Shown here in pieces: positions 2 to 32,945 of a stretch of 64,000 nucleotides of DNA; position 1 is the first letter of the stretch; each line of letters begins with the position of its first letter. The notes under the pieces are model-generated. The model saw nothing but the letters and a program-made list of their open reading frames with translations, made no database searches and had not been told where the DNA came from. The position numbers and the translations under genes were made by a program. Origin of the DNA: an uncultured Candidatus Actinomarina sp. (lineage in GTDB: Bacteria > Actinomycetota > Acidimicrobiia > Actinomarinales > Actinomarinaceae); NCBI GenBank assembly GCA_902609285.1, contig CACLRL010000001.1, positions 15,636 through 79,635 of the forward strand. Direction: 5' to 3'.

Positions 2-415
2 TTAAGAATTTTTAGTAGATTTTTTGGAATTAAGGACCCACAAAAATTTATCATTGAAAACCAAAAAAATTTATTAAAAAACATACGGTCAAGAAAATTT
101 AATGAAGTGTTGATGGATTTTGGATCAAAGATTTGTAAATCAAAAAATCCTTCATGCAGTTTATGTATGTTCGATAATGAATGTAAAAAATTTATTCAAG
201 TTGAACAAACTCGCCAACAAGAATTTAAGGGTTCAAATAGAGAAATTAGAGGAAAAATAATTAAGCATCTTATAGAAAATAACAATGTTGAAATGTCTTC
301 CTTGAAAATGGTAATTAAAACTGAAGATAATAGGCTAAAACATATTTTAAAAAAACTTGAAAGTGAAGGAATGATCACAATAAAGAATAAAAAATTAATT
401 GAAATTAGTAGTTGA
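2..415 (+). CDS. HhH-GPD / [4Fe-4S] base-excision DNA glycosylase (MutY/Nth family), 5'-truncated by window edge
   Basis: Frame 2 is open from the window start. It has a C-x6-C-x2-C-x5-C cluster loop (CKSKNPSCSLCMFDNEC) typical of EndoIII/MutY. The short C-terminal tail looks like a winged helix, not the MutY NUDIX-like domain. Confidence 0.6.
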   Translation, partial: LRIFSRFFGIKDPQKFIIENQKNLLKNIRSRKFNEVLMDFGSKICKSKNPSCSLCMFDNECKKFIQVEQTRQQEFKGSNREIRGKIIKHLIENNNVEMSSLKMVIKTEDNRLKHILKKLESEGMITIKNKKLIEISS

Positions 416-433
416 GAATACTATTTTTTAATT

Positions 434-694
434 ATGCCTGTCTCTAAAAAAAGAAATAAAAGAAAAAATCTTGGACCTACAAAGTCAAAAAAAATTTCTT
501 CTCAGATGTCTGATGTAAGTGGGCCATCACCTAGATGGTTTGTGCTCACAATGTCTTCACTCATGATTATCGGTGTTTTATTAATCGTCTTAAATTATTT
601 AACATTATTACCTGGATCTGTTTCAAGATGGTATTTATGGAGTGGATTGGGATGCATTGGTATAGGCTTTTTAATGACTACAAAATATAATTAG
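434..694 (+). CDS. crgA: cell division membrane protein CrgA
   Basis: 86 aa with a basic N-terminus, then PRWFVLTM and two TM helices. This is the characteristic actinobacterial CrgA layout and matches the locus synteny. Confidence 0.7.
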   Translation: MPVSKKRNKRKNLGPTKSKKISSQMSDVSGPSPRWFVLTMSSLMIIGVLLIVLNYLTLLPGSVSRWYLWSGLGCIGIGFLMTTKYN

Positions 695-710
695 CCAAAT
701 CAAAAAAAAT

Positions 711-947
711 TTAATACTCTATTGGAGTCATTTCTTCTTTGCAGTGCTTAGGTGGCTCATTAGCAACTACAGATTGTAATTTAACTGTTAATTCTGTTCC
801 GCAAGCTTTACATAAAAATGATTGTGCTGTTTCTAAAACATCACTCGGATCAATCTCTGGTGGGACACTTGCTAGTGAGCCAATGGAATTTTTCAAAAAT
901 CTAAATATAACAACTCCAATTAGGAAAGCTATTAAATATTCCATCAA
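711..947 (-). CDS. hypothetical small membrane-anchored protein with CxxC...HC motif
   Basis: 78-aa ORF with an N-terminal TM helix and CKAC / KHC cysteines. It overlaps the upstream ORF by 4 nt. Confidence 0.4.
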   Translation of the reverse strand: MMEYLIAFLIGVVIFRFLKNSIGSLASVPPEIDPSDVLETAQSFLCKACGTELTVKLQSVVANEPPKHCKEEMTPIEY

Positions 948-1129
948 GTTGTAATATATCTATAAACAGAGAGAATGACAGCAATAATAATCCAAGCTAT
1001 AGCCACTCCTCTTGGATTAGTTTTTAAGTAAGATTCTCTATATTTTTTTTCTTCAAGAACTTCATCAATAGATTCTTTGAGTTCTCTTAATTCACTCTCA
1101 GACAAATTTTCAAAGTCTTTTTTATCCAT
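944..1129 (-). CDS. hypothetical small tail-anchored protein
   Basis: 61-aa ORF with an acidic helical N-terminus and a C-terminal TM helix. It is coupled to 711..947. Confidence 0.4.
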   Translation of the reverse strand: MDKKDFENLSESELRELKESIDEVLEEKKYRESYLKTNPRGVAIAWIIIAVILSVYRYITT

Positions 1130-1149
1130 ATTATAAGATTACCTCGTTG

Positions 1150-1222
1150 TGGAGATGATGGGACTTGAACCCACGACCCCCTGCTTGCAAAGCAGGTGCT
1201 CTTCCAGCTGAGCTACATCCCC
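1150..1222 (-). tRNA. tRNA-Ala (anticodon UGC)
   Basis: The reverse complement reads GGGGATGTAGCTCAGCTGGAAGAGCACCTGCTTTGCAAGCAGGGGGTCGTGGGTTCAAGTCCCATCATCTCCA. The cloverleaf has a G3:U70 identity pair and anticodon loop TTTGCAA. CCA is not encoded. Confidence 0.9.
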
Positions 1223-1311
1223 TCGCAATTTATATTATGCCTTGAATTTACTCGTAAATGAAAAAATTTTAGAAATATTTCATATTCATTACTATTGTAG
1301 GTAGAGCAAAA

Positions 1312-1389
1312 GGGCCTATAGCTCAGCCTGGTTAGAGCGCATCCCTGATAAGGATGAGGTCGTTAGTTCAAATCTAACTAGGCCCACCA
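1312..1389 (+). tRNA. tRNA-Ile (anticodon GAU), CCA encoded
   Basis: GGGCCTATAGCTCAGCCTGGTTAGAGCGCATCCCTGATAAGGATGAGGTCGTTAGTTCAAATCTAACTAGGCCCACCA. The anticodon loop is CTGATAA and the acceptor stem GGGCCTA/TAGGCCC is perfect. Confidence 0.9.
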
Positions 1390-1572
1390 GTGAGTTGTAA
1401 AAAATGTATCACTAATGAAGTCTGGGAAAAAGCTCTTCCATCTGACCTTTTAAAAAAGTGTGGAAACTGTGGTGAGATTGGCTTTCCTCTGACAAATTTA
1501 TTGAAAGCTTCAGGAGCTTTTAGTGTTTTTATTTATATTATTTCATTCTTTTTTTCTTTGTTATCAAATTAA
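1390..1572 (+). CDS. hypothetical zinc-ribbon (CxxC...CxxC) protein with C-terminal TM helix
   Basis: GTG start directly after the tRNA CCA. It has CKKC...CGNC pairs and a hydrophobic tail. There is no obvious SD, so it may be spurious. Confidence 0.3.
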   Translation: MSCKKCITNEVWEKALPSDLLKKCGNCGEIGFPLTNLLKASGAFSVFIYIISFFFSLLSN

Positions 1573-1586
1573 AAAAAGCATTTAAA
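1569..1586 (+). repeat. 18-nt motif TTAAAAAAAGCATTTAAA, copy 1 (identical copy at 13938..13955)
   Basis: Exact 18-nt identity between two intergenic regions. Both copies are followed by TAATTCC and AGTACGTA and then by hairpins. Confidence 0.6.
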
Positions 1587-1646
1587 TTTACCTGGAATTA
1601 AGAGCCTGGTATATCCACTACCACAAGCCCTTAATTCCAGTACGTA

Positions 1647-1681
1647 CTCAGATAAAAGGGAGACCAATTATCTGAGTTTTT
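1647..1681 (+). terminator. hairpin + T-run (possible intrinsic terminator / 3' end of a small RNA)
   Basis: CTCAGATAA-(12 nt)-TTATCTGAG followed by TTTTT. It is preceded by an 11-bp hairpin CTGGAATTAAG...CTTAATTCCAG (1592..1640). Confidence 0.4.
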
Positions 1682-1715
1682 ATAATCTAAAGTCAAGGGG
1701 ATAACTTTTAATTAT

Positions 1716-1740
1716 AAAAAAATCCGGGATAAACCCGGAT
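1716..1740 (-). terminator. intrinsic terminator downstream of ogt
   Basis: The minus strand reads ATCCGGGTTTATCCCGGAT followed by TTTTTTT. It lies about 110 nt after the ogt stop. Confidence 0.5.
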
Positions 1741-1853
1741 CTAAACAATACAAAAAAGACCCGGCTAAATAGCTGACCACCCTTTATGATGTATGTTTAT
1801 AAAATTCATTGTTTCTATATTAACTCATACGTAATATAGGAAAGTAAATAATG

Positions 1854-2135
1854 TTAAAACTTTGTTTCGTTGTTTTCATTTTTTAGGAGTATTCTTTTTT
1901 TAGGTAAGCCACCAGGTCCGCTGTAGCCCCCTAGTTTTCCATTTGAGCAAATGACTCTATGACATGGAATAATGATTGGGTAAGGATTTTTACCACAAGC
2001 ATTTGCAACTGCTCTTGATGAGTTGGGACGACCAATCTTTATTGCTATATCTTTGTAGGTTGTAGTTTTCCCAAAGGGAATATTAGATATTTCGTTCCAA
2101 ACAAGCTTCTCAAAATTAGTTCCTATTATCTCCAC
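1854..2135 (-). CDS. ogt: methylated-DNA--protein-cysteine methyltransferase (C-terminal DNA-binding/active-site domain only)
   Basis: It has the PCHRV active-site motif (IIIPCHRVICSNGKLGGY). At 93 aa it corresponds to the MGMT C-terminal domain. Confidence 0.8.
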   Translation of the reverse strand: MEIIGTNFEKLVWNEISNIPFGKTTTYKDIAIKIGRPNSSRAVANACGKNPYPIIIPCHRVICSNGKLGGYSGPGGLPKKRILLKNENNETKF

Positions 2136-2201
2136 TTAAAAAGTATAAGACATCACAATTATTGATAGTTACAAACTACATATAATATTTATTTTATATA
2201 T

Positions 2202-3950
2202 ATGAATAAACACTCAACTCAGATTTCAAATGTTTTAATTATTGGTAGTGGAGGCGCTGGTCTCAGAGCAGCAATTGAAGCTAAACAAGAAGGAATGGAT
2301 GTTACTGTACTTGGCAAAAGACAAAGAACTGATGTTCATACGGTCCTTGCTGCTGGGGGTATAAATGCTGCATTTGGAAATGTTGATCAAGAAGATTCTT
2401 GGGAACAACATTTTGCTGATACATATATTGAAGGCTATGGACTATCAGAGCCAGAGGTTGTTGAGCTTATGGCTAAAGAATCTCCACAGCTTGTTGAAGA
2501 AATTGATAATTGGGGTGCCAATTTTGCAAAACTTGATAATGGCAAAATTGACCAAAGGTTTTTTGGTGCTCACACATACAGAAGAACTTGTTACTCAGGA
2601 GACTATACAGGAAGATCGATACTTTTTGCATTAATAAATAAAGCAAAAAACCTTGATATACCAATTTTAGATTCTCAATATGTTTCTGATCTATTGGTTG
2701 ATGACAATGTATGTTTTGGTGCAATGGCATTTGATATTCAAAGCGGCGAAAGAACCGTTTACTTAGCAGATTCTGTCATTGTTGCTGCAGGAGGTCACAC
2801 GAGATTATGGAGAAAAAGCTCATCAAGGAGGAATGAAAATACAGGTGATGGATTTTACTTAGGTTTAAAAGCTGGTTGTAAGTTAAGTGATATGGAAATG
2901 GTTCAATTTCACCCAACTGGAATGGTTATACCAGAAGAGATGGCAGGAACTTTAGTAACTGAAGCTGTTCGAGGTGAGGGTGGAAAGCTAATTAACAGTG
3001 ACGGTGATAGATTCATGGAAAATTACGATAAAGAAAGAATGGAATTATCAACCCGAGACAGAGTTGCAATGGCTAATTATACAGAAATTGTTGAAGGAAG
3101 AGGATCTCCAAATGGAGGTGTTTATCTTGACATTAGTCATAAGAGTAAAGATTTTATCATTGAAAAACTTCCAAGAATGTACAGACAATTTCTAGATACA
3201 TTAATGATTGATATCTCAAAAAGTCCAATGGAAGTTTCACCTACAGCACATTATTCAATGGGAGGTATCGTTGTTACCCCGGATGATCATTGGACAGGAG
3301 TTGAAGGGCTGTATGCTGCTGGAGAAGTCACAGCAGGACTACACGGTGCAAATAGACTTGGGGGGAATTCACTAGCTGAAATTCTCATTTTTGGAAAAAG
3401 AGCTGGGGCTGCAGCAACAAAACGATCAAAAGAAATTGAGGTTCAAGTTAGGTCTAAAAACGCAATAGAGCAAGCACATGAAAACCTTAATTCATTGATA
3501 AGAAACGGATCTGAAGTTGCAAGACCTCTTCAAAGATCTTTAAGAAATATTATGTGGGAATATGGTGGTGTTGTTAAGAATGAAAAAAAATTAATTAAAG
3601 GTTTGTCTGAAATAGATAATCTTAAAGAAGCATCTAAAAATCTTGATGTACGTCCTGATTCTGAAGGATATCAAGATTTAATGCTTGCGTTGGATTTAGA
3701 GGCCTCTCTTATCTCTTCTGAAGCTACATTGATGAGCGCATTAAGTAGAAAAGAGAGTAGAGGTGCACACCAAAGAGAAGATTTTATTGATTTAAGTGAA
3801 GACGAGAATGTGAATGTCAGAATAGAGCTTGAAGAAGACAAAAAAATAAAATTAACAAAAGATCCTATACCAACTTTAAGAAAAGAGTTAGAAAATATCA
3901 TTAAAAAAACAAATGAAATTAGTAACTTTGAAGGAATGCTGCTCGAGTAA
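2202..3950 (+). CDS. succinate dehydrogenase/fumarate reductase flavoprotein-family FAD oxidoreductase (no Fe-S or membrane subunits adjacent)
   Basis: GSGGAGLRAA dinucleotide fold, VHTVLAAGGINAA (His at the covalent-FAD position), FHPTG, RGEGG, HYSMGG and ESRGAHQRED motifs. Confidence 0.75.
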   Translation: MNKHSTQISNVLIIGSGGAGLRAAIEAKQEGMDVTVLGKRQRTDVHTVLAAGGINAAFGNVDQEDSWEQHFADTYIEGYGLSEPEVVELMAKESPQLVEEIDNWGANFAKLDNGKIDQRFFGAHTYRRTCYSGDYTGRSILFALINKAKNLDIPILDSQYVSDLLVDDNVCFGAMAFDIQSGERTVYLADSVIVAAGGHTRLWRKSSSRRNENTGDGFYLGLKAGCKLSDMEMVQFHPTGMVIPEEMAGTLVTEAVRGEGGKLINSDGDRFMENYDKERMELSTRDRVAMANYTEIVEGRGSPNGGVYLDISHKSKDFIIEKLPRMYRQFLDTLMIDISKSPMEVSPTAHYSMGGIVVTPDDHWTGVEGLYAAGEVTAGLHGANRLGGNSLAEILIFGKRAGAAATKRSKEIEVQVRSKNAIEQAHENLNSLIRNGSEVARPLQRSLRNIMWEYGGVVKNEKKLIKGLSEIDNLKEASKNLDVRPDSEGYQDLMLALDLEASLISSEATLMSALSRKESRGAHQREDFIDLSEDENVNVRIELEEDKKIKLTKDPIPTLRKELENIIKKTNEISNFEGMLLE

Positions 3951-6611: not shown

Positions 6612-6721
6612 CCTTAATTATCATTCTATTAAATAAAAGGTAAGTAATAATTTAAAATATCAAAGAAATAAATAGAAAGTTTTAGTTCATTTTATGAGAT
6701 TTGATATAATAATGAAAGCAT

Positions 6722-6815
6722 AAAGAGAAGGTTAAGACCTCGGCAACCTGGATGACTATCCAAGGTGCCTAAAGATGTGGCAGAAATGCAACTAATTAGT
6801 CAAAGCCCTTCTCCA
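6722..6815 (+). promoter_or_regulatory. SAM riboswitch of the SAM-I clan (SAM-IV or SAM-I/IV-like), 5' leader of metY-metX
   Basis: P1 GAGAAGG (6725..6731) pairs with CCTTCTC (6807..6813). The core is CGGCAACC-[CTGGA TGACTA TCCAA]-GGTGCC. An extended -10 TGATATAAT lies at 6702..6710, and the location upstream of Met biosynthesis genes fits. Confidence 0.55.
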
Positions 6816-6831: not shown

Positions 6832-8112
6832 ATGAAGTTTGATTCAAAACTTATACATGCAGGTTGGGATTCAGATGCTGATTCTGAGGGATCAATAACT
6901 GTTCCTATTTATAAAACAACTGCATATCAATTTAATGACACGGAACATGCGGCTAGCTTGTTTGCCTTAAAAGAGTTTGGAAACATTTACTCTCGACTCG
7001 GCAATCCAACAGTTGGTGCTCTAGAAGCAAGGCTTACGGCTCTAGAAGATGGCGCTATGTCTGTTGCTCTATCGTCGGGTACATCTGCAGTTATGTACTC
7101 ACTTATAAATATTATGAGTCAAGGGGATAATTTTGTTACAGCAAACCAACTTTATGGTGGTACTTATACAATGTTCGATAATATATTGCCTGAATATGGT
7201 ATCGACTCTAAAAAAGTTGATATTACAGATCTAACTGCTGTTGAAAATGCAATTGATGAGAAAACTCGAGCAATATATTGTGAAACAATTACTAATCCCG
7301 GGTTAGTTGTCGCTGACATTTCTGCATTAGGAGAAATTGCTAAATCTAAAGGTATACCTTTAATAGTTGATGCTACTTTTACTACAGCAGCAATTTGTAA
7401 ACCTTTTGATTTTGGAGCAGATATTGTAGTTTATTCTCTTACAAAATGGATGTCTGGACATGGAAGGGTAATTGCCGGAGCAGTTATTGAAAAAGGTGGT
7501 TTTGACTGGGGTAATGGAAATTTCCCATTATATGACAAGCCTGATACCAGTTATGGCGGAATGAGATGGGGACATGATTTAGGTGACTTAAGTAATGTAG
7601 CTTACTCATTAAGGCTAAGAACAGTTCCACTAAGAAACCTTGGTGCAAGTATGTCTCCAGAGACAGCTTTTGAAGTTATGAGTGGACTTGAGACTTTAAG
7701 TCTGAGAATGGATCGGCATTGTGAAAATGCTATAAAAGCCGCGGAATATCTATCAAACCATGAACTTGTTGAATGGGTAAGGTTTCCCGGACTCAAAGAT
7801 GATCCTGCTTATGACCTATCAGAAAAGTACCTAAAAGGTACTGGTGGAACAATGGTTGTTTTTGGTATCAAAGGTGGAAAAGATTCTGGACAGAAATTTA
7901 TAGATAATTTAAAAATGTTTAGACATGTTGCAAATGTTGGAGATACTAGATCTTTAGCAATTCACCCTGCATCCACAACACATTCACAATTAGATGATGA
8001 GCAGTTAATAGCCGCAGGTTCTCCTGCAGAGTTAGTAAGGCTTTCAATTGGTATTGAAGACATAGATGATATCATAGAAGATCTATCTCAAGCTCTTGAA
8101 AGTACAAAATAA
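6832..8112 (+). CDS. metY: O-acetylhomoserine aminocarboxypropyltransferase (sulfhydrylase), PLP-dependent
   Basis: Cys/Met-metabolism PLP fold with SLTKWMSGHG (PLP lysine). It is 426 aa with the SD AAAGGAG. Confidence 0.85.
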   Translation: MKFDSKLIHAGWDSDADSEGSITVPIYKTTAYQFNDTEHAASLFALKEFGNIYSRLGNPTVGALEARLTALEDGAMSVALSSGTSAVMYSLINIMSQGDNFVTANQLYGGTYTMFDNILPEYGIDSKKVDITDLTAVENAIDEKTRAIYCETITNPGLVVADISALGEIAKSKGIPLIVDATFTTAAICKPFDFGADIVVYSLTKWMSGHGRVIAGAVIEKGGFDWGNGNFPLYDKPDTSYGGMRWGHDLGDLSNVAYSLRLRTVPLRNLGASMSPETAFEVMSGLETLSLRMDRHCENAIKAAEYLSNHELVEWVRFPGLKDDPAYDLSEKYLKGTGGTMVVFGIKGGKDSGQKFIDNLKMFRHVANVGDTRSLAIHPASTTHSQLDDEQLIAAGSPAELVRLSIGIEDIDDIIEDLSQALESTK

Positions 8113-22719: not shown

Positions 22720-22811
22720 GTAAATTAGAAAAAAGACTCTTCTGGTCTTTTATATTTCTAACATTTTTATTGCATCTCTATTTGGTGGTAAATTTAGTAC
22801 TTCGTGGTTAG
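22716..22811 (+). CDS. 31-aa mini membrane protein, tandem paralog B
   Basis: (M)SKLEKRLFWSFIFLTFLLHLYLVVNLVLRG. It shares MS+LEKRxFWSF...LHxYLV with paralog A and overlaps the start of the next gene. Confidence 0.4.
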   Translation: MSKLEKRLFWSFIFLTFLLHLYLVVNLVLRG

Positions 22812-23268
22812 AAAAAATTTAAAATTTTTTATAATTTGTCTTCTTTTTATTAGTTGTAATCAATCAGAACCTGAAGTTAAATCTGTAGAAATAAGAGAAC
22901 CAGAAGAGATATTGGTTGAAATTATGGAAAGTTACCAAAACTTTTCTAAAAATCCAGATAAATCTGTAGAAATTATTTGGAATAATGCTCATAAAGATAA
23001 TAAAGAAGTGACAGGTCCAATTGACAGATTCAAATTGATGCTTACCTCTGAACCATATAATTCAATAATTGATTTAACTGATTATTCATATGAGACTATC
23101 CAAAAAGATAGTGAAACGGTCCACTACGAAATAAAAATATTAAATAACAAAAATGAATATTTTATTGTTACTTGGGTGTTTGTACTTGATGAATGTGAGC
23201 TTAGTAGCGGGATGTGTTGGCAGACAATAGGAGTAAGCCCTCCTGCATATTTTGATTCTGGTATTTAA
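22804..23268 (+). CDS. hypothetical lipoprotein
   Basis: Signal peptide with lipobox LFISC (MVRKNLKFFIICLLFISCNQ). GTG start overlaps the preceding mini-ORF. Confidence 0.55.
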   Translation: MVRKNLKFFIICLLFISCNQSEPEVKSVEIREPEEILVEIMESYQNFSKNPDKSVEIIWNNAHKDNKEVTGPIDRFKLMLTSEPYNSIIDLTDYSYETIQKDSETVHYEIKILNNKNEYFIVTWVFVLDECELSSGMCWQTIGVSPPAYFDSGI

Positions 23269-23292: not shown

Positions 23293-23427
23293 TTAATCGC
23301 GGGGATCATTTATTGTTATTGAGACATAAACAGTATATGCAACTCCTGAGACCAAAGCTGCAGCAGCCACAAACTTAATTAATAAATTAGAACTCGTAAA
23401 CATACTGCTTTTCATGGGTTCTGACAT
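23293..23427 (-). CDS. possible 44-aa single-TM mini-protein at the end of the ABC/lipoprotein operon
   Basis: MSEPMKSSMFTSSNLLIKFVAAAALVSGVAYTVYVSITINDPRD. It starts 18 nt after the upstream stop and has no SD. Confidence 0.25.
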   Translation of the reverse strand: MSEPMKSSMFTSSNLLIKFVAAAALVSGVAYTVYVSITINDPRD

Positions 23428-23445
23428 TATTTAATACTACTATGT

Positions 23446-24078
23446 TTATTCATCTAAATTTTCTAGAGGGTTTTCCGGTTGGCAAATCTCGAATGCTTCT
23501 TGAACGTCATCTGAAGTCCACTCTATTTCTGCATCTCTAAATGCAAAAAATCCAAATTCACCAGGTGTTGGATCAGGAAAATTACTAATTCCTTCCTCTC
23601 TCATGCACTGAGAAAACTCTAAAGATGCGTCTACTAGTGCTGCTTCAACCTCAGGATCTAAATCAAATTGTTCTGGAAGCGCATTTCTTAGAATATCTTC
23701 ACAATTAGTGAAAGCTTCTTCAAATTCGTCTTCATTCTCCACATCAACATTATCAAACTGAGGGTTACCGTCAATATCAAAGGTTGGATCTGGAAAATTA
23801 ATACCCTCTTCTCTCATGCATTGTGCAAAGTCCAAGACTCCTTCTTCGAAAGTAACCTCATCAAATATTGTTGTTGAAACGGTGTTTTCATCAATAGAAA
23901 CAACACCTTTTGTTTCTTCTTCGCCGATAGTGCATGCACTCAGAACAAGAACAATTGTAAAAAGTGCTACTTTCTTACTGCCTCTGCTGGTTGAATTTTT
24001 GACGCTTTTATTGCTGGATAAACTCCAGATATTGCTCCAATTAATAATGCTAAAAATACTGCTCCTAAAATTTGCCAT
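23446..24078 (-). CDS. acidic 4-Cys lipoprotein paralog P1 (start codon uncertain)
   Basis: Lipobox LVLSAC, a GVVS motif after the Cys, and two repeats of xQCMREEGIxxFPDP...C. The only in-frame ATG/GTG/TTG is 112 nt inside the upstream permease gene. Confidence 0.6.
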   Translation of the reverse strand: MANFRSSIFSIINWSNIWSLSSNKSVKNSTSRGSKKVALFTIVLVLSACTIGEEETKGVVSIDENTVSTTIFDEVTFEEGVLDFAQCMREEGINFPDPTFDIDGNPQFDNVDVENEDEFEEAFTNCEDILRNALPEQFDLDPEVEAALVDASLEFSQCMREEGISNFPDPTPGEFGFFAFRDAEIEWTSDDVQEAFEICQPENPLENLDE

Positions 24079-25151
24079 ACAGGTATTGAGAATACAATAT
24101 TTGTGTAGTTAGTATAAGCCAAAGTAATAACAGCACCTAAACCAACACCTACTAGGCCACCGATTCCAGACAAAACGATACTCTCAAGTAGAAACTGATA
24201 CCTTATTTCTCTTCTTGTTGCTCCTATTGATCTTCTAACGCCTATTTCCATTCTTCGCTCAAGAACTGACATAACCATAACATTTGCTATTGCTACACCA
24301 CCAACTAAAAGCGCTACGGAGCCTAAACCTAATAATAAATTTGTAAATGCTTCCTCAGCAGCTTGTTGAGCTTCAAGTGCGTCTGATGGCCTTGTAACTT
24401 CCACTTGGTCTGGGTTTTCCGGATTCATAGAAGGTGCCAGAACTTCAACTACGTCTTCTATAAAAGTTGGATTTGCTCTTAAATAAATTGTTGTTGGCTC
24501 TTCGTCGATATCAAAAAGAGTTTTTGCGACTCCATATCCAATAAAAACTGATCTATCTAAGTCAGGATGTATCTTCAGCTCTTCTAATATACCAACTACT
24601 CCAAACCATTCATTATCAATAAGTATTTTGCTTGGCGTTGAGAGATTGGTTATACCTAATCTTTGTGCCGTTACACTTCCTAAAACAGTTACTGGTATAT
24701 CAGATAAATCATTACTTATAAATCTACCTTCAATTAAGTTTCCACCTATTACGTCTAAAAGCTCTGCACTAGTAATTATTGTTGATATTCCTCCACCTTC
24801 AAATTCTGATATAAAGTCACTTCTACGAACTAGTAAATCAGTCTGAGTTGTAGATGTTACTTCTTCAACTGGTCCAATTCTTTCAACCATTCCTAGAACT
24901 CCTTTTGGTAGTTCTTCCTGGGTTCCAAAAAATCCTGCTTGAGGAGAAGCTTTTACTAGATTTGTTCCAAGTGATTCAAGAGTTGATAGTAAGTCAGCTC
25001 TTCCAGATGCTGATATTCCAGAAACTGCGACTATTGCAGCTATTCCAATTCCAATTCCAATAGATGTAAGAGTAGCTCTGCCTTTTCTTGCACGAACTCC
25101 ATAAAGTGCAACAAAAAATAAATCTCTAGTTCTTAGTTTTTTTCTTTTCAT
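23967..25151 (-). CDS. MacB/FtsX-type ABC transporter permease
   Basis: N-terminal TM, a large extracytoplasmic MacB-PCD-like domain and a C-terminal FtsX 3-TM bundle. Confidence 0.85.
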   Translation of the reverse strand: MKRKKLRTRDLFFVALYGVRARKGRATLTSIGIGIGIAAIVAVSGISASGRADLLSTLESLGTNLVKASPQAGFFGTQEELPKGVLGMVERIGPVEEVTSTTQTDLLVRRSDFISEFEGGGISTIITSAELLDVIGGNLIEGRFISNDLSDIPVTVLGSVTAQRLGITNLSTPSKILIDNEWFGVVGILEELKIHPDLDRSVFIGYGVAKTLFDIDEEPTTIYLRANPTFIEDVVEVLAPSMNPENPDQVEVTRPSDALEAQQAAEEAFTNLLLGLGSVALLVGGVAIANVMVMSVLERRMEIGVRRSIGATRREIRYQFLLESIVLSGIGGLVGVGLGAVITLAYTNYTNIVFSIPVWQILGAVFLALLIGAISGVYPAIKASKIQPAEAVRK

Positions 25152-25153
25152 TT

Positions 25154-25831
25154 TTACACAATTTTTCCATCAACCAATTCAATTACTTTTTTAAACATAT
25201 TTGCATGCTCTTGATTGTGAGTAATCATAATTACAGTTTTTCCTTGGTTGTTAAGTTCTTTTAAGATATTTAAAATATTTATTCCTGATTCTTTATCTAA
25301 ATTTCCGGTTGGTTCATCTGCTAAAACAAATGCTGGGTCTTGTACTAGCGCTCTAGCAATAGCAACTCTTTGTTGCTGGCCACCAGAAAGTTCTTTAGGA
25401 AGGTGGCTTAACCTATCACCGAGTCCTACTTGTTCTAAAACCTCTCCAGCTTTTTCTAGCCTTTCTGACCTTGAAATCCCTTGATATAGTAGTCCTTCTG
25501 CAACATTCTCTTGTGCGGTCAATCCAGGTAAAAGAAAAAAGCTTTGAAAAATGAACCCTATTTTTTCGCCTCTAAATTTAGAAAGTTCATTATCTGTTAG
25601 CTCAGATATATCTTTGCCTTCTATTTCAATTGAACCACCAGAAACACTGTCCAATAAGCCAATCATATTTAATAAAGTTGATTTTCCACTTCCAGATTGT
25701 CCAACAATTGCTACCAGATCTCCTTCTTTAACGTTTAAAGAAACTCCATCTAGTGCTTTTACAGGAGGTGGCCCTTCATAAACTTTGGAAATATTATTGA
25801 TTGAAATTACAGTTTTTGTATCGGTTTTCAT
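25154..25831 (-). CDS. ABC transporter ATP-binding protein (MacB/LolD class)
   Basis: Walker A GQSGSGKST, signature LSGGQQQRVAIARAL and Walker B FVLADEPTGNLD. Confidence 0.9.
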   Translation of the reverse strand: MKTDTKTVISINNISKVYEGPPPVKALDGVSLNVKEGDLVAIVGQSGSGKSTLLNMIGLLDSVSGGSIEIEGKDISELTDNELSKFRGEKIGFIFQSFFLLPGLTAQENVAEGLLYQGISRSERLEKAGEVLEQVGLGDRLSHLPKELSGGQQQRVAIARALVQDPAFVLADEPTGNLDKESGINILNILKELNNQGKTVIMITHNQEHANMFKKVIELVDGKIV

Positions 25832-27411
25832 CGCGGTACGACTACAAGTTGACCCTCTGAGATATTTCCTATTATTTCAACAAAGCCCTCAGTAAATACG
25901 CCTATTTCAACAGCAATATAGCTAGTATCTACTCCAGATTCTCCTTCAAATGTTCCATTGTCAACCTCTCCATCATAAACTTCCAATGCATATCCACCTT
26001 CTGCCAAAGCAAGAAGAGCATTAACAGGAACATAAAGAACATTTTCAGAAATCTCTGTTGTCACAAATACTTTTACTGGAGCTTGATCATAAGCTTCAAT
26101 CTCTTCTGGGTTAAGAACTTCTAGAGTAACTTCTATAAATTCTCCTGCCTGAGTTTGTGTTACAACCTGGTCAATAAATGTAATAACTGTTGGGACTCTT
26201 TCATCGGTAGGAAGTTCTATTTCAACACTGTCACCAAGTGAAACTGTTTCCTGGTCGGTAGCATCAACTTGAAAGACAACCTCAATTCCAATAGAAGAAA
26301 TGTTGTACAGTGGTGAATTTAGTACGACTGCAGAACCAACGTCGTTAATATAAGAACCTACAATTATTGGTGTTTTTGACGCATACGCGTTTGTTGGGCT
26401 AAAGGTTTCTGACTTTGAGGCAAGTTCTAACTCTTCAAGTTCTTCTTTTGCTTTTGCTAATTCAGCTGCTTGATCAACTCCTTCGTTGTAGCTTTCTAAG
26501 GTATCATCATATGCTTTTTGAGCTGTTTCAATAGCTAATGCTTCTGTGGCATCAATTCCTGATTCTTTGCCTTTTTCTAAATCTTTAATTCTTTTTTGTT
26601 TCTCAATCTCTTGCTGTAGATCTTCTATTTCAGAGTCTCTAGTGCCATTTGCAATTTTTTCTTTTGTTTCAGGAATCGTATCGTCTTGAAGTAAGGTAAT
26701 GCTTTGTTCAGCATTTTCAATAGCGGTATCAGCTGCTTTCCAAGCTGCACTTTCTTCCGTAGCAGCATCTTTTGCATCATCTAGCTTTTTCTTTTTGTCG
26801 TTGACTTGCGCCAAAGTAGTTCCACCATCTGAGATTGTCTCTTCAATATTTTCTACTTCAGTCTTTTTTAAATTGATAGCAACCTGTTCTGCTGGTGTAA
26901 TTTCAGATTTTGTATCAATTTTGTAATCAACATAAAGTACATTAAGCATATTTGAGGTAGTTTCATCAAAAGTTTCATCAGGTACAAAGTCTTCTGCTGC
27001 ATATCCTAAAAACACAAGTGCTTTCTCAAGTTGTAAAACATCAGGACCTGCATCAGAATTTAAATCAAGAGTTCTATAAAAAGGTGTCGCTCCTTCAACT
27101 AAAATTACAGGTTTATTGTCTACAGCAAATAAGACCTCTCCAAAATTAATAATGGTTCCTTCTTTGGGAATTAAGGTTATAACTCCTGACATAGGTGAGT
27201 TGAGCACTTTACTATTAGTCTGTCTTAAGGTTCCGTTGTACTCTTCCTTCTTTGCTAAGTCACCTTTTTGTATAGGAACAGTAGTAAGCTCTAAAGTTTT
27301 ATTACTTGAGGATGTCTCTGTGTTCTGAGTACCAAAATAGTAGCCACCGTAACCAAGTGCCAGCACCACTATTAAAATGTACAGGTTTTTTAATTTAAAA
27401 ATATTTTTCAT
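25828..27411 (-). CDS. membrane-anchored HlyD/MacA-like adaptor with peptidoglycan-binding domain and long coiled coil
   Basis: N-terminal TM, a barrel-sandwich segment (GVITLIPKEGTIINFGEVLF) and a PG_binding_1-like GPDVLQLEKALVFLGY. It also has about 200 aa of K/E/A-rich coiled coil and a C-terminal beta-barrel. It overlaps the ATPase gene by 4 nt. Confidence 0.7.
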   Translation of the reverse strand: MKNIFKLKNLYILIVVLALGYGGYYFGTQNTETSSSNKTLELTTVPIQKGDLAKKEEYNGTLRQTNSKVLNSPMSGVITLIPKEGTIINFGEVLFAVDNKPVILVEGATPFYRTLDLNSDAGPDVLQLEKALVFLGYAAEDFVPDETFDETTSNMLNVLYVDYKIDTKSEITPAEQVAINLKKTEVENIEETISDGGTTLAQVNDKKKKLDDAKDAATEESAAWKAADTAIENAEQSITLLQDDTIPETKEKIANGTRDSEIEDLQQEIEKQKRIKDLEKGKESGIDATEALAIETAQKAYDDTLESYNEGVDQAAELAKAKEELEELELASKSETFSPTNAYASKTPIIVGSYINDVGSAVVLNSPLYNISSIGIEVVFQVDATDQETVSLGDSVEIELPTDERVPTVITFIDQVVTQTQAGEFIEVTLEVLNPEEIEAYDQAPVKVFVTTEISENVLYVPVNALLALAEGGYALEVYDGEVDNGTFEGESGVDTSYIAVEIGVFTEGFVEIIGNISEGQLVVVPR

Positions 27412-27477
27412 CGTTGTTCCAATTAGTGTAGTTTATTAATCCTATGTGTATTCTGAGAAGTTTTTTCACTTAGTTTT

Positions 27478-28077
27478 TTATGCATCCCACTCCTCATCTT
27501 TTAACTCTTCTGGTAATTTGTCCTCACATGCCTGCCATGTCTGAACTAATGGATCATCTTCTCTCAACTCCCAATCTTCATCAATATAAGCATCTAATCT
27601 GACTTCTCTATTGAAATAATCTGGGTCTGGAACTTTAGGATAACCACTTTCTCTAAAACACTTCGCCATAAATAATGATCTATCAATTTCTTTGGATACT
27701 TCTGCTGGATCTTCAAATTGATTTTCATCTGCTACACCCCATAAATTATATTTCAAGGCACACTCCTCAATTATGCCCCAGAGTTCTTCGGCTTCCTGTT
27801 CGGTTATTGTTTCAAAATATGATGCAATCGTGGTGTATAGGTCTATAAAGTTCTTTGGTTCTTTAAATTTATACCCTGATTCATTAACACATTGAACAAG
27901 GACTAAAGGTGCATCCTCATCTGAGATTTCTTCACGTTCATCTACTAGCTCAACACCTAGAGCAATTGCCTCTTTCCCCTTATCGGTGTCTGCAACAGAG
28001 ACAACAGATTGCTCGTCTTGTTGGAAAAAAGAACATGCTGTTAAAAAAATGAGTATTACTGAAGCTTTTTTATACAT
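27478..28077 (-). CDS. acidic 4-Cys lipoprotein paralog P2
   Basis: The start is taken at internal MYKKASVILIFLTACSFF (lipobox LTAC). It has an SVVS motif, VQCVNESGY...C and AKCFRESGYPKVPDP...C. The ORF-track start at 28203 would overlap P3. Confidence 0.65.
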   Translation of the reverse strand: MYKKASVILIFLTACSFFQQDEQSVVSVADTDKGKEAIALGVELVDEREEISDEDAPLVLVQCVNESGYKFKEPKNFIDLYTTIASYFETITEQEAEELWGIIEECALKYNLWGVADENQFEDPAEVSKEIDRSLFMAKCFRESGYPKVPDPDYFNREVRLDAYIDEDWELREDDPLVQTWQACEDKLPEELKDEEWDA

Positions 28078-28102
28078 AGCAAAATTATAAATAATCTTAG
28101 TC

Positions 28103-28693
28103 TTATCCTCCACCTTGTTGTGGTGGTTCAAGTCCAAGTTCGTCAAAGCACTCTCCAGCAGTTTGTCTAATTTGATCTTCAAGGTATTGTCCAGATTGCA
28201 CAAGGCTTATAAGAATAGATCTGAGAGGTCTCTCAGCATTTGGGTCTTCAACCTCTATCCCTTTTTCTCGCAAGCATTGTGCAAGTTCCAACTCAGTGTC
28301 TAATGTATCAGCAACTTCTTCAGGATTCTCAAAGTCTGCTGTGCCACCTAGTGGAATATTATTTTCGTCAGCACATGTTTGAATTGTCTCAAAAAGTTCC
28401 TCTCTCTCTTTTTGATCAGCAGCTAAAAATACTGGACGTAAAACACTTTGTAAGCTTTCATCATTTTTAGGATCTGTAATATCATATCTATTCTCTCTTA
28501 AGCATCTAGCAAGTAAAAGCTGCGCATCTTCTACTGAAACGACCTCTTGAACGACTTCCTCTGCAATTGTTGTAACTGTTGTATCGCTTGATAAATCATT
28601 CGTAGAAACAACTCCTTGTGATTCATCTGATGAGGAGCACGCCAATAAAAAAATAAATAAAAGTATTAAGAGAGTGTTTGAATATTTTTTCAT
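28103..28693 (-). CDS. acidic 4-Cys lipoprotein paralog P3
   Basis: MKKYSNTLLILLFIFLLACSS lipobox, a GVVS motif, ARCLRENRYDITDP...C and AQCLREKGIEVEDP...C. Confidence 0.7.
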   Translation of the reverse strand: MKKYSNTLLILLFIFLLACSSSDESQGVVSTNDLSSDTTVTTIAEEVVQEVVSVEDAQLLLARCLRENRYDITDPKNDESLQSVLRPVFLAADQKEREELFETIQTCADENNIPLGGTADFENPEEVADTLDTELELAQCLREKGIEVEDPNAERPLRSILISLVQSGQYLEDQIRQTAGECFDELGLEPPQQGGG

Positions 28694-28718
28694 TTTTTTA
28701 ATTATACAAATTTAATTC

Positions 28719-29207
28719 TTATTTTTGCCAACCACATTCTTGTAGCAACGGCATAATATCATCTCTAGATTCCTTGAGCCCACTTAAATCAACCTTGGGT
28801 TCTTGCTGGATTGGATCAGGAACGTTTAAGCCCTTTTCTCTTAAGCATTTAGCTAATTCAAGGTTTTCATCATATACTTTGGCAAGCTCTTCTGGATTCA
28901 AGGAAGATGAATCCGACCAGAGATCATATTTGCTTATACAAAAATCAACATCTTCACTTAACTGTGACTCTTCTTTTTTATTTTTGGTTAATTGGCTAAT
29001 TGTTGATTTTAAATCTTGTATATCAAACGGAGTTGCAATGTTATATCCCATTTCTTCGTTTAAGCAATTCGCTAAAACTATTGGATAATCTTCTTCATTT
29101 ATAATTTCGGTTGTTGTTGTGTTTTCAAAAATTGAAACAACCCCACTTTCTGAGCTACTACAAATATTAAAAAATAAAATAAAAAAAAGTATGTTTGTTT
29201 TTTTCAT
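28719..29207 (-). CDS. acidic 4-Cys lipoprotein paralog P4
   Basis: MKKTNILFFILFFNICSS lipobox, a GVVS motif, ANCLNEEMGY...C and AKCLREKGLNVPDP...C. Confidence 0.7.
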   Translation of the reverse strand: MKKTNILFFILFFNICSSSESGVVSIFENTTTTEIINEEDYPIVLANCLNEEMGYNIATPFDIQDLKSTISQLTKNKKEESQLSEDVDFCISKYDLWSDSSSLNPEELAKVYDENLELAKCLREKGLNVPDPIQQEPKVDLSGLKESRDDIMPLLQECGWQK

Positions 29208-31801: not shown

Positions 31802-32773
31802 TTAACTTTGTACTTTACTTTTATCCCTTCTGGTAATAACTATGTACGCTGTCAAGATTATCACAATTATTGTTGCAATGATGATGTTTTGAGTAGTGTC
31901 TGAACTGCCAAGATCACTGTCTAGATATTTTGCTTTATATATCAATCCAGGATCACCATTTGACTTTGTTGTTTCTGATAAAACATTTATTAAATCAACA
32001 GTGTTGACTCCCCAGTTGTTAGCTAAATTTTCATCTAAAAAATAAACATTGTCATTTGCTATAGCTTTAATGTTTTCCCAACCTTGTCGTGTTGAAAGAT
32101 CTTTATTTAAATAATCCGAATGGCCAATGACTATTAAGTCTGGATCACCAGCTAAAACCTGTTCTTCTTCAAGAACTGGATAGCCAGAACCATAAGGGTC
32201 TTCAATTGTGTTTGCTATATTATCAACACCTAAAAGATTGTAAATTTCACCTATAAAAGAATTTTCGTTAACGGAATAAATACCATAGGTGTATCCAATT
32301 TCGTGGTAAACGGACAATGGTGTACCAATCGAGTTTGCAATAATATCATCAATATCAGATTTCATCTCACTAACTAGTGAACTTGCCTGGTCTGATTTAT
32401 TTATTATTGACCCCACAGTTTCAATTTGAGAGTAAACATCATCAAGAGTTTGTGCTGGGGGTAGAAGGACATACTCTATATCTAGATTTTCAAGTCCTTC
32501 TACTATTCCGTTGAAATCAAATGCAACAAGAACAATATCTGGATCTAATATCAGCAATTCATCTGCTGTAACTGTATAGGCATCGATTTTCTCAATTGGT
32601 AGTTCGGTTTCAGAGAACGAATCTACACCAACTAGTAGATTTTCTCCTTCAAGCATTTGAATAATTTCAGTATGGGTAGTTGATAAGGAGACAATATTTT
32701 TGTCTTCAGCTACATCAGAGCCCCCTGAACACATTGAAATTAACATGGCAAGAAGTAATATTTTTGTTTTCAT
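31802..32773 (-). CDS. BtuF/FecB-type periplasmic-binding-protein-fold substrate-binding protein with signal peptide and C-terminal TM anchor
   Basis: The ATG at 32773 is preceded by AAGGAA, and the N-terminus reads MKTKILLLAMLISMCSGG. It has a cluster-A SBP-like fold and a C-terminal IIIATIIVIILTAYIVITRRDK. It lies directly downstream of a cobalamin riboswitch. Confidence 0.7.
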   Translation of the reverse strand: MKTKILLLAMLISMCSGGSDVAEDKNIVSLSTTHTEIIQMLEGENLLVGVDSFSETELPIEKIDAYTVTADELLILDPDIVLVAFDFNGIVEGLENLDIEYVLLPPAQTLDDVYSQIETVGSIINKSDQASSLVSEMKSDIDDIIANSIGTPLSVYHEIGYTYGIYSVNENSFIGEIYNLLGVDNIANTIEDPYGSGYPVLEEEQVLAGDPDLIVIGHSDYLNKDLSTRQGWENIKAIANDNVYFLDENLANNWGVNTVDLINVLSETTKSNGDPGLIYKAKYLDSDLGSSDTTQNIIIATIIVIILTAYIVITRRDKSKVQS

Positions 32774-32799
32774 ATTTTCCTTTCTCACCACGAGAAAAA

Positions 32800-32945
32800 G
32801 TAAGATACTCCATTCCTTCTCTCGAGGATTGTTGTCTAAAAAGTAAGAAAGGCGACCTGACTTATCCGAAGAATCACAGTTGCGGGACAGTGCTAGATTT
32901 TCACTAGCTTCGCTTTTTTACTTTATTTGTTTTAAAAAGAGTAGC
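32800..32945 (-). promoter_or_regulatory. cobalamin riboswitch (short, possibly AdoCbl-variant class)
   Basis: The minus strand reads ...GCTAGTGAAAATCTAGCACTGTCCCGCAACTGTGA...AAGTCAGGTCGCC..., matching the GUGAAAAUC / CCCGCAACUGU core and a B12-box-like AGUCAGG..GCC. Downstream CCTTTCTT can pair with the SD GAGAAAGG. Confidence 0.7.

Follow-up and report, generated by a model that had tools for sequence, protein, structure and literature searches.

A run of genes on the minus strand of a marine actinobacterial genome encodes four related acidic lipoproteins, here named P1 to P4, together with a membrane-anchored adaptor, an ATPase, and a permease predicted to form an ATP-binding cassette (ABC) pump of the MacB type. 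The genes occupy positions 23446-29207 of a stretch of 64,000 nucleotides from an uncultured Candidatus Actinomarina sp. (assembly GCA_902609285.1, contig CACLRL010000001.1); this whole stretch is referred to as the window, and all positions are given in its numbering. The four proteins are members of a widespread protein family, a gene of which directly precedes the genes of a MacB pump in all loci examined from Actinobacteria and Chloroflexota; the family is therefore probably an unrecognised extra part of cell-envelope MacB pumps. The lipoprotein is taken here to be an extracytoplasmic accessory subunit of a stress-regulated MacAB-like pump, an interpretation that is favoured, with somewhat better than even confidence, because of the fixed gene order, the translational coupling of the genes, the retention of the lipoproteins after loss of a two-component system, and a docking-like motif carried on a flexible tether.

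An unnamed family of acidic lipoproteins

The initial annotation had described P1 to P4 as homologous lipoproteins with four cysteines arranged in two modules. Comparisons by blastp, by family profile, and between the modules, as well as the invariance of the cysteines, all bear this out, with an atypical lipobox in P4. The family profile matches P1 (23446-24078), P2 (27478-28077), P3 (28103-28693), and P4 (28719-29207), all on the minus strand, with E-values of 4.7e-48, 2.7e-38, 1.9e-42, and 1.9e-19, respectively, and matches no other open reading frame (ORF) in the window. P1, which lies downstream of the permease gene, is the paralogue nearest to the canonical family, and P4 (162 amino acids, aa) is the most divergent. 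Pairwise blastp E-values range from 6e-8 to 2e-19, those of P4 against P2 and P3 being 2e-17 and 2e-19; P2, P3, and P4 are mutually 37-39% identical and share 27-33% identity with P1. P3 has 196 aa. The start of P2 is placed at MYKK, giving 199 aa, and the 241-aa ORF that begins at a TTG is considered over-extended, because relatives (contig L001) are called at 199 aa.

Lipidation is predicted from canonical lipoboxes in P1 (LSAC), P2 (LTAC), and P3 (LLAC) and from the atypical FNIC in P4. About 10 residues past the lipobox cysteine each of the four has a (G/S)VVS motif, SVVS in P2 and GVVS in P3 and P4. Both modules of P1 are canonical (CMREEGINFPDP and CMREEGISNFPDP), the modules of P3 are CLRENRYDITDP and CLREKGIEVEDP, and in P4 module 1 is degenerate and module 2 canonical (CLREKGLNVPDP). 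Profile-profile comparison of module 1 with module 2 (probability 99.8%, E 3e-28) points to an internal duplication. The mature proteins are also very acidic, as had been noted at the outset, with net charges of -17 to -42 and a pI of about 4.05-4.2. When compared with marine orthologues, the ratio of non-synonymous to synonymous substitution (dN/dS) was 0.15-0.24 for P4, 0.12-0.19 for P3, 0.04-0.08 for P2, and 0.03-0.15 for P1. By these ratios all four paralogues are under purifying selection, and none is a decaying duplicate.

The AlphaFold2 (AF2) model of mature P1 (pLDDT 75, pTM 0.50) has a disordered tether at residues 1-22, followed by four helices with one cysteine on each, making each module a helix-loop-helix with one cysteine pair. 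Each mature protein consists of a flexible tether of about 40 residues bearing a short VASL/VVS motif, and then the two homologous helix-loop-helix modules. The invariant cysteine pair of each module probably forms a disulfide.

Beyond the window, a profile of the four mature proteins identified 3256 clusters (50% identity) at E <= 1e-3 among 1.84 billion representatives, and P3 has 2121 homologues. Among the P3 matches listed there is no label beyond 'hypothetical protein'; likewise, this is the only name found among the family members listed, many of which are nameless. A typical member is a lipoprotein of 190-230 aa with five cysteines and two modules of the form 'CMR[DE]xG[IV]DxPDP'. The four cysteines other than that of the lipobox are invariant in 126 aligned members, and most members have a canonical lipobox in a pattern scan. 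The 177 members that are full-length have a median net charge of -32, and 87% of them bear a motif of the [VI]A[ST][LIV] type about 10 residues past the lipobox cysteine. The P family therefore appears, as far as its sequences can tell, to be large, membrane-tethered, and composed mostly of lipoproteins.

The module had originally been left without a family name, and searches of Pfam, NCBIfam, and the PDB, by sequence and by fold, have given it none. There is no Pfam-A or NCBIfam family for P1 to P4, for 10 distant members, or for the 126 aligned members when scanned individually; PDB sequence searches with family profiles returned nothing below E 0.3, and the best Foldseek match of the P1 model to the PDB has an E-value of 5. 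Pfam matches to CX9C, CHCH, COX17, H-NS_N, and Metal_resist are all sub-threshold and are rejected as evidence of membership. Those to CX9C were found in 53 of the 126 members (best E 3.8e-4), with no listed score at the gathering score of 26.4 bits and with individual scans at 11-18 bits. CHCH, CX9C, and COX17 hairpins have two Cx9C motifs each, whereas the P-family module has one cysteine per helix, and the likeness is confined to the cysteine-stapled helix-loop-helix.

A few members depart from the typical form. P0163, P0238, and P0244 (290-321 aa) have no lipobox in the pattern scan, and in P0163 and P0238 a long proline-rich N-terminal extension is followed by a hydrophobic stretch; these three proteins suggest that what matters is membrane tethering, not lipidation as such. 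The gene call of P0271 takes in two tandem family copies, one partial and one full, which shows duplication in high-GC lineages as well. P0158 resembles a fusion of lipoprotein and adaptor; it is most probably a read-through or frameshift artefact, as an arginine-rich out-of-frame linker is followed by the adaptor's own methionine and transmembrane (TM) helix, and it is not used as Rosetta-stone evidence.

The family gene heads a pump operon

A scan of one genome per GTDB species with 12 close sequences gave 80 loci. Most are from Acidimicrobiia, and others are from Thermoleophilia (Solirubrobacter), Nitriliruptorales, Euzebyaceae, Actinocrispum, Planotetraspora, and bins of Chloroflexota. In all loci with at least 3.3 kb of downstream sequence (72/72), the next genes after the family gene, in the same orientation, encode homologues of the window adaptor, ATPase, and permease, in that order. 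In 59 of 75 loci the lipoprotein and adaptor genes share 4 or 1 nt, an in-frame start of the second overlapping the stop of the first. Of the loci reached through adaptor homologues, the seven with DNA each have a family gene as their immediate upstream neighbour (E 1e-16 to 6e-55). Three annotated Streptomyces plasmids, two of them found with a divergent query of the 'VPNFPDP' type, have genes for a hypothetical protein, a peptidoglycan-binding protein, an ABC ATP-binding protein, and an ABC permease, adjoined by those for a response regulator and a histidine kinase.

The initial annotation had itself proposed a survey of gene neighbourhoods as the means of refuting a connection between the lipoproteins and the ABC genes; the linkage proved to be conserved in every locus examined. 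The canonical operon, as read from these genomes, has the lipoprotein gene first, then the genes for the TM-anchored adaptor, the MacB-type ATPase, and the MacB-type permease, and it ranges over Acidimicrobiia, Thermoleophilia, Nitriliruptoria, some Actinomycetes including the Streptomyces plasmids, and Chloroflexota. The same operon was found, with scores as strong as those of actinobacterial loci, in bins labelled Burkholderiales (L018) and Gemmatimonadales (L071); these two contigs are probably mis-binned.

Where the genes of a locus were listed, none beside the operon was TolC-like, and no hydrolase domain was seen within the operon. In full-text literature searches for a peptidoglycan-binding adaptor with MacB, a lipoprotein, and a two-component system in Actinobacteria or Streptomyces, no description of the system was found, only general reviews of MacB and adaptors being returned, and nothing was found in work on Actinomarinales concerning it.

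A MacB-type pump with a putative peptidoglycan-binding adaptor

In the window, P2 adjoins the adaptor gene on its upstream side and so occupies the canonical slot of the family gene. The adaptor (25828-27411, 527 aa), ATPase (25154-25831, 225 aa), and permease (23967-25151, 394 aa) genes follow on the minus strand. The ATPase belongs to the MacB/LolD/FtsE clade (PF00005, E 6e-36), and its best NCBIfam alignments are to the nucleotide-binding domain of MacB (235 bits), DarD, and LolD. The permease exceeds the cut-offs of both PF12704 (MacB_PCD; 60.8 bits against 27) and, in its C-terminal part, PF02687 (FtsX; 77.1 against 25.5). Its nearest solved sequences, aligned over the full length, are MacB (5lil and 5gko, E 1e-22) and Spr0695 of Streptococcus pneumoniae (5xu1_M, E 2e-21), and its matches to the solved chains of LolC/LolF and YtrF are far weaker (LolF/LolC E about 4e-6). 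Identification as the FtsX of an FtsEX complex is rejected, as the FtsX_actino score is 36 bits against a cut-off of 250 and the periplasmic domain is of the MacB_PCD type. From these matches the ABC genes are assigned to a MacB-type (type VII) transporter, in agreement with the assignment originally made.

The relationship of MacB to LolCDE had raised the idea that the lipoproteins are cargo, extracted or released by the MacB machine in a Lol-like manner or by shedding. LolCDE is indeed a member of the MacB superfamily, weak alignments of the permease to LolC/E were obtained, and the conserved VASL/VVS motif near the lipidated cysteine could be a recognition element. The scores of the permease, however, are far below the respective cut-offs (37.5 bits against 362 for TIGR02212, 28 against 473 for LolC, and 26 against 439 for LolE), and identification as LolC/E is rejected. 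In addition, the adaptor is present in every locus, whereas Lol systems have none; lineages of the carrier kind are classified as Gram-positive and would have no outer membrane to which cargo could be delivered; and P0163, P0238, and P0244 show no lipobox in the pattern scan. The translationally coupled lipoprotein and adaptor genes, in a one-to-one pair, are moreover typical of subunits. No positive evidence was found for this role, which is considered unlikely.

From its N terminus, the window adaptor comprises a TM helix, beta domains, a PG_binding_1 segment that is degenerate (residues ~120-162), a helical insertion of ~160 aa (173-333, from alignment and the AF2 model), and C-terminal beta-barrel domains. 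Its AF2 model (pLDDT 74) has 71 Foldseek matches in the PDB at E <= 0.001, reaching 3e-15, with MacA, AcrA, MexA, EmrA, BesA, ZneB, CusB, and Spr0693 among the top matches. The adaptor is predicted by this model to share the lipoyl and beta-barrel fold of solved periplasmic adaptors (membrane fusion proteins, MFP), and HlyD_3 is above the cut-off of 22.2 bits in orthologues (25.8 and 32.5 bits). Of the architecture first proposed for this protein, the periplasmic-adaptor fold has therefore stood; the peptidoglycan-binding domain is found in the orthologues and not, above the cut-off, in the window protein. PG_binding_1 (PF01471) scores 12.6 bits there (E 0.16) against a cut-off of 23, whereas 8/8 orthologues pass with 33-78 bits. 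The window segment aligns with theirs column for column and is best regarded as a degenerate homologue. Typical orthologues are 330-390 aa in length and have PG_binding_1 in the place where an alpha-hairpin normally sits, with no hairpin; adaptors of 506-534 aa in some other lineages also have an added helical region.

Loss of the two-component system in the lineage of the window

An OmpR-type response regulator and a HAMP/HisKA histidine kinase are encoded directly upstream of the operon in 70/72 loci, divergently in 54 and co-directionally in 16. The pair is downstream of the operon on two Streptomyces plasmids. A cluster of serine/arginine-rich ORFs upstream of the family gene (31 loci) is rejected as a wrong-frame shadow of the response-regulator gene.

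No homologue of the response regulator or the histidine kinase was found in the 64-kb window. On seven related marine contigs (L117, L133, L134, L148, L150, L155, and L161), the kinase and regulator genes are located between P4 and P3, on the opposite strand, with the kinase gene on the P4 side and the regulator gene on the P3 side, and where these contigs are long enough they continue as P2, adaptor, ATPase, permease, and P1. L162, a contig that begins within the kinase gene, also has the regulator pair next to P3. The P3 proteins of the regulator-carrying marine contigs are 71-80% identical to that of the window, in which the P4-P3 junction (28694-28718), the site of the deletion, is 25 nt. 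The lineage of the window has thus deleted the regulator pair and kept the pump and the four lipoproteins. The canonical system has one lipoprotein and an adjacent two-component system; the state in the window, with its four paralogues, is derived, and the loss of the regulator pair implies constitutive expression. Among other marine relatives without the pair, the P4-P3 spacer is ~480-560 nt in L099 and L125, and ~2.5 kb, without matches to either regulator, in L088; this suggests that the two-component system was eroded repeatedly or stepwise.

Actinobacterial kinases are well known to have lipoprotein co-sensors, CseA, LpqB, and HbpS being kinase accessories. The P-family lipoprotein could likewise be a sensor or modulator of the adjacent kinase, with the pump as merely a regulated target. 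Such a role would fit the adjacency of the two-component system in nearly all loci and its position between P4 and P3 in the marine relatives. Nevertheless, it is improbable. The four paralogues of the window have no two-component system beside them and yet are under purifying selection, and this retention after the loss of the regulators indicates that the lipoproteins work with the pump and not with the sensor. The translational coupling of the lipoprotein gene is to the adaptor gene and not to the regulators, and the position and orientation of the regulators vary (divergent, co-directional, or downstream), whereas the junction of lipoprotein and adaptor is fixed.

A putative role for the lipoprotein

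A role as an accessory subunit of the pump can be set against what is known of such machines. Characterised MacB machines pick up their substrate on the membrane's outer side and drive it out by mechanotransmission; the adaptor of Gram-positive bacteria is believed to provide a passage across the wall zone, and binding to peptidoglycan is known for YknX (PMC5985334). In the system proposed here, a MacB dimer would turn ATP hydrolysis into movement of the periplasmic domains, the adaptor would anchor the machine to the wall and make an exit path across the wall zone, and the lipoprotein, at the membrane surface, would capture or present the substrate or else gate the assembly. The two-component system would give this an inducible role in envelope stress or detoxification. 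The organism of the window may have four subfunctionalised paralogues, three upstream and one downstream, working with a long-insertion adaptor after loss of the regulators. A cationic membrane-active substrate, such as a peptide antibiotic, is the leading guess, and a weak one, because the family is extremely acidic.

Several observations weigh against an accessory-subunit role or against parts of it. The 80 loci were those that matched one subfamily best by tblastn, and remoter members could have other contexts. No characterised member of the family was found, so the proposed function draws on gene context and nothing else. The AF2 model of P1 is of moderate confidence. Members from Streptomyces NBC_00376 and Gaiellaceae look by inspection to be rich in lysine and arginine, so acidity is not universal, which weakens the guess of a cationic substrate. 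Lastly, promoter and terminator scans bearing on the operon boundaries in the window were no better than those of shuffled sequence.

A function in the homeostasis of a metal such as copper, with the acidic lipoprotein and its cysteine, methionine, and histidine residues acting as an extracytoplasmic metallochaperone in the manner of CusF, which feeds CusB/CusA, is very doubtful, in spite of several suggestive matches. In NCBIfam, the response regulator and histidine kinase align best with the heavy-metal subfamilies CopR/CzcR and CopS/CzcS (192 and 206 bits), and the sole NCBIfam match of the window adaptor is to the CzcB family (E 8e-6); these scores are, however, below the cut-offs of 279 and 292 bits for the regulators and 319 for CzcB, and MtrA/B and CseB align nearly as well. 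The sub-threshold matches to CX9C, CHCH, COX17, and Metal_resist recur within the family, but the histidine and methionine of the CMREHG motif are not kept in P2 to P4, and in the P1 model the invariant cysteine pairs are on consecutive helices, as structural disulfides would be. On the Streptomyces cadmiisoli plasmid NZ_CP030074 (L168, locus 234-3629) copC, copD, and a gene with a thioredoxin domain lie upstream of the module at a distance of ~2.3-3 kb, but no homologue of the three was found in the 80 other loci. A link with copper as a general feature is therefore rejected, being confined to one Streptomyces plasmid, and no MacB-type metal pump is known.

That the adjacency is incidental, P1 to P4 being unrelated secreted proteins around an ABC pump, has a negligible probability and is refuted by the survey of neighbourhoods. 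Nothing favours it except that ABC genes are common in bacteria generally, and the same order recurs in all of the genome (72/72), adaptor-side (7/7), and Streptomyces plasmid (3/3) loci and in those marine metagenome loci of sufficient length, across two phyla.

The accessory-subunit interpretation could be extended, tentatively and with rather more doubt than confidence. The P family would then be a fourth structural subunit class of monoderm MacAB machines, a membrane-tethered, disulfide-stapled receptor or gate that docks on the periplasmic domain of MacB or on the adaptor. This would make a four-component, wall-spanning pump across Actinomycetota and Chloroflexota. In streamlined marine actinobacteria, diversification of the subunit into four specialised versions might allow a single constitutive pump to deal with more than one substrate.

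Comparison with known systems

The closest relatives of the system are the Gram-positive MacAB-like pumps Spr0693-0694-0695 of S. pneumoniae and YknWXYZ of Bacillus, which likewise combine a MacB-type permease, a separate ATPase, and a TM-anchored adaptor in organisms that lack an outer membrane. YknW is an extra accessory membrane protein (PMC5985334), to which the P-family lipoprotein is unrelated. Unlike in those pumps, a dedicated PG_binding_1 domain here replaces the adaptor alpha-hairpin, and a two-component system is part of the conserved neighbourhood.

YbjP, a small lipoprotein, is a structural partner of MacAB-TolC and AcrAB-TolC in E. coli (PDB 9qgy and 9tg4; PMC13082787). It is a DUF3828 outer-membrane lipoprotein that sits on TolC and is encoded outside the pump operon, whereas the hosts here are without TolC. 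No Pfam match to DUF3828 was found in the P family, and the P1 model has no Foldseek match to YbjP, though YbjP entries are in the PDB copy searched. YbjP shows, however, that lipoprotein partners of well-studied pumps can escape notice for a long time.

LolCDE also brings together the MacB superfamily and lipoproteins at the outer face of the cytoplasmic membrane, as here, but it has no adaptor, depends on LolA/LolB as well as an outer membrane, and acts on many lipoproteins whose genes lie outside its operon.

LanI is the substrate-binding lipoprotein of lantibiotic immunity modules, in which it occurs with LanFEG and LanRK. Those modules and BceRS-BceAB follow the same logic of a two-component system joined to an ABC exporter for an extracytoplasmic substrate. 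LanFEG, however, is of the ABC-2 type, no biosynthetic genes are linked to the operon here, and no sequence similarity was found between LanI and the P family. BceB is a relative of MacB (PMC5985334), but it has ten TM helices and works without an adaptor. A further parallel lies outside the ABC transporters. In CusCFBA the operon-encoded extracytoplasmic CusF hands the substrate to the adaptor and pump, alongside a two-component system of the CusRS type. CusA is, however, a resistance-nodulation-division (RND) pump and not an ABC transporter, and the beta-barrel fold of CusF is unlike that of the P family. YbjP, LanI, and CusF are conceptual parallels, none of which is homologous to the P family.

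Gene layout and other features of the window

In transcription order from P4, the spacers are 25, 25, and 66 nt, followed by an overlap of 4 nt between the adaptor stop and the ATPase start and by a gap of 2 nt between ATPase and permease; P1 overlaps the permease gene by 112 nt. The region is low in GC (31-37%). The gene order is identical on a contig of assembly GCA_902563415.1, where it is located downstream of gyrB-gyrA-DUF3566, and the close relatives are all of marine metagenome origin (TARA and GOS, for example).

P1 appears to begin at the ATG at 24078, within the permease gene, because a start codon is missing before the signal peptide. The ancestral start, seen in L117, L125, and L127, is an ATG that overlaps the permease stop (ATGA). 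Analysis of the start codons of 16 sequences revealed that this ATG is gone from the window and from 12 other marine sequences. In these 13, the open -1 frame of the permease 3' end extends 62 codons back, as far as an ATG whose position is conserved (MAN[FI]..., at 24078 in the window). Codons 1-37 of P1 would be read in this -1 frame (23967-24078, minus strand), and a start at 24078 gives a signal peptide of 49 residues. A fusion of permease and P1 by -1 frameshifting was considered and set aside, since the upstream ATG and the open alternative frame of 62 codons are kept in all 13 start-less sequences.

After P1 there is a 44-aa ORF with a predicted TM segment (23293-23427, minus), 84-89% identical at the amino acid level to counterparts in L110 and L142, the only related contigs in which it is present. 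In L001, L104, L107, and L108 this segment is unaligned although the flanking DNA aligns. The initial annotation had listed this ORF as a possible component of the system; from these alignments it appears to be strain-variable and no core part. Convergent with P1 is a 154-aa ORF (22804-23268, plus) with a lipoprotein-like signal peptide (…LLFISC), which is outside the P family; the equivalent position in L001 is also occupied by a 154-aa gene.

Two riboswitches were identified. An adenosylcobalamin (AdoCbl, B12) riboswitch (69 bits; 32802-32938, minus) is directly upstream of a 329-aa ORF (31802-32791), the L001 counterpart of which matches the Pfam family Peripla_BP_2 (periplasmic binding protein); it is probably the starting point of the extended series of co-directional genes running into P4. 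A SAM-I/IV (S-adenosylmethionine) riboswitch (75.5 bits; 6713-6805, plus) lies just upstream of the ORF at 6832-8112.

Significance

MacB pumps with an adaptor were already known from monoderms, YknXYZ and Spr0693-0695 being precedents (PMC5985334). What is new is the conserved lipoprotein, from an unnamed family without a solved structure, the hairpin-less peptidoglycan-binding adaptor as its constant partner, and the marine state with four paralogues and no regulator pair. The role of adaptors and MacB pumps in bacteria without an outer membrane is still open (PMC5985334), and a coupled lipoprotein partner, a peptidoglycan-binding adaptor, and a dedicated two-component system make that question directly testable. 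Cultivable carriers include Streptomyces with plasmids NZ_CP107961, NZ_CP030074, and NZ_CP116354, Planotetraspora silvatica NBRC 100141, and Actinocrispum. For the extremely abundant and streamlined marine actinobacterium itself, the keeping of four lipoprotein copies after loss of the regulators suggests that the system is of importance for life in the surface ocean.

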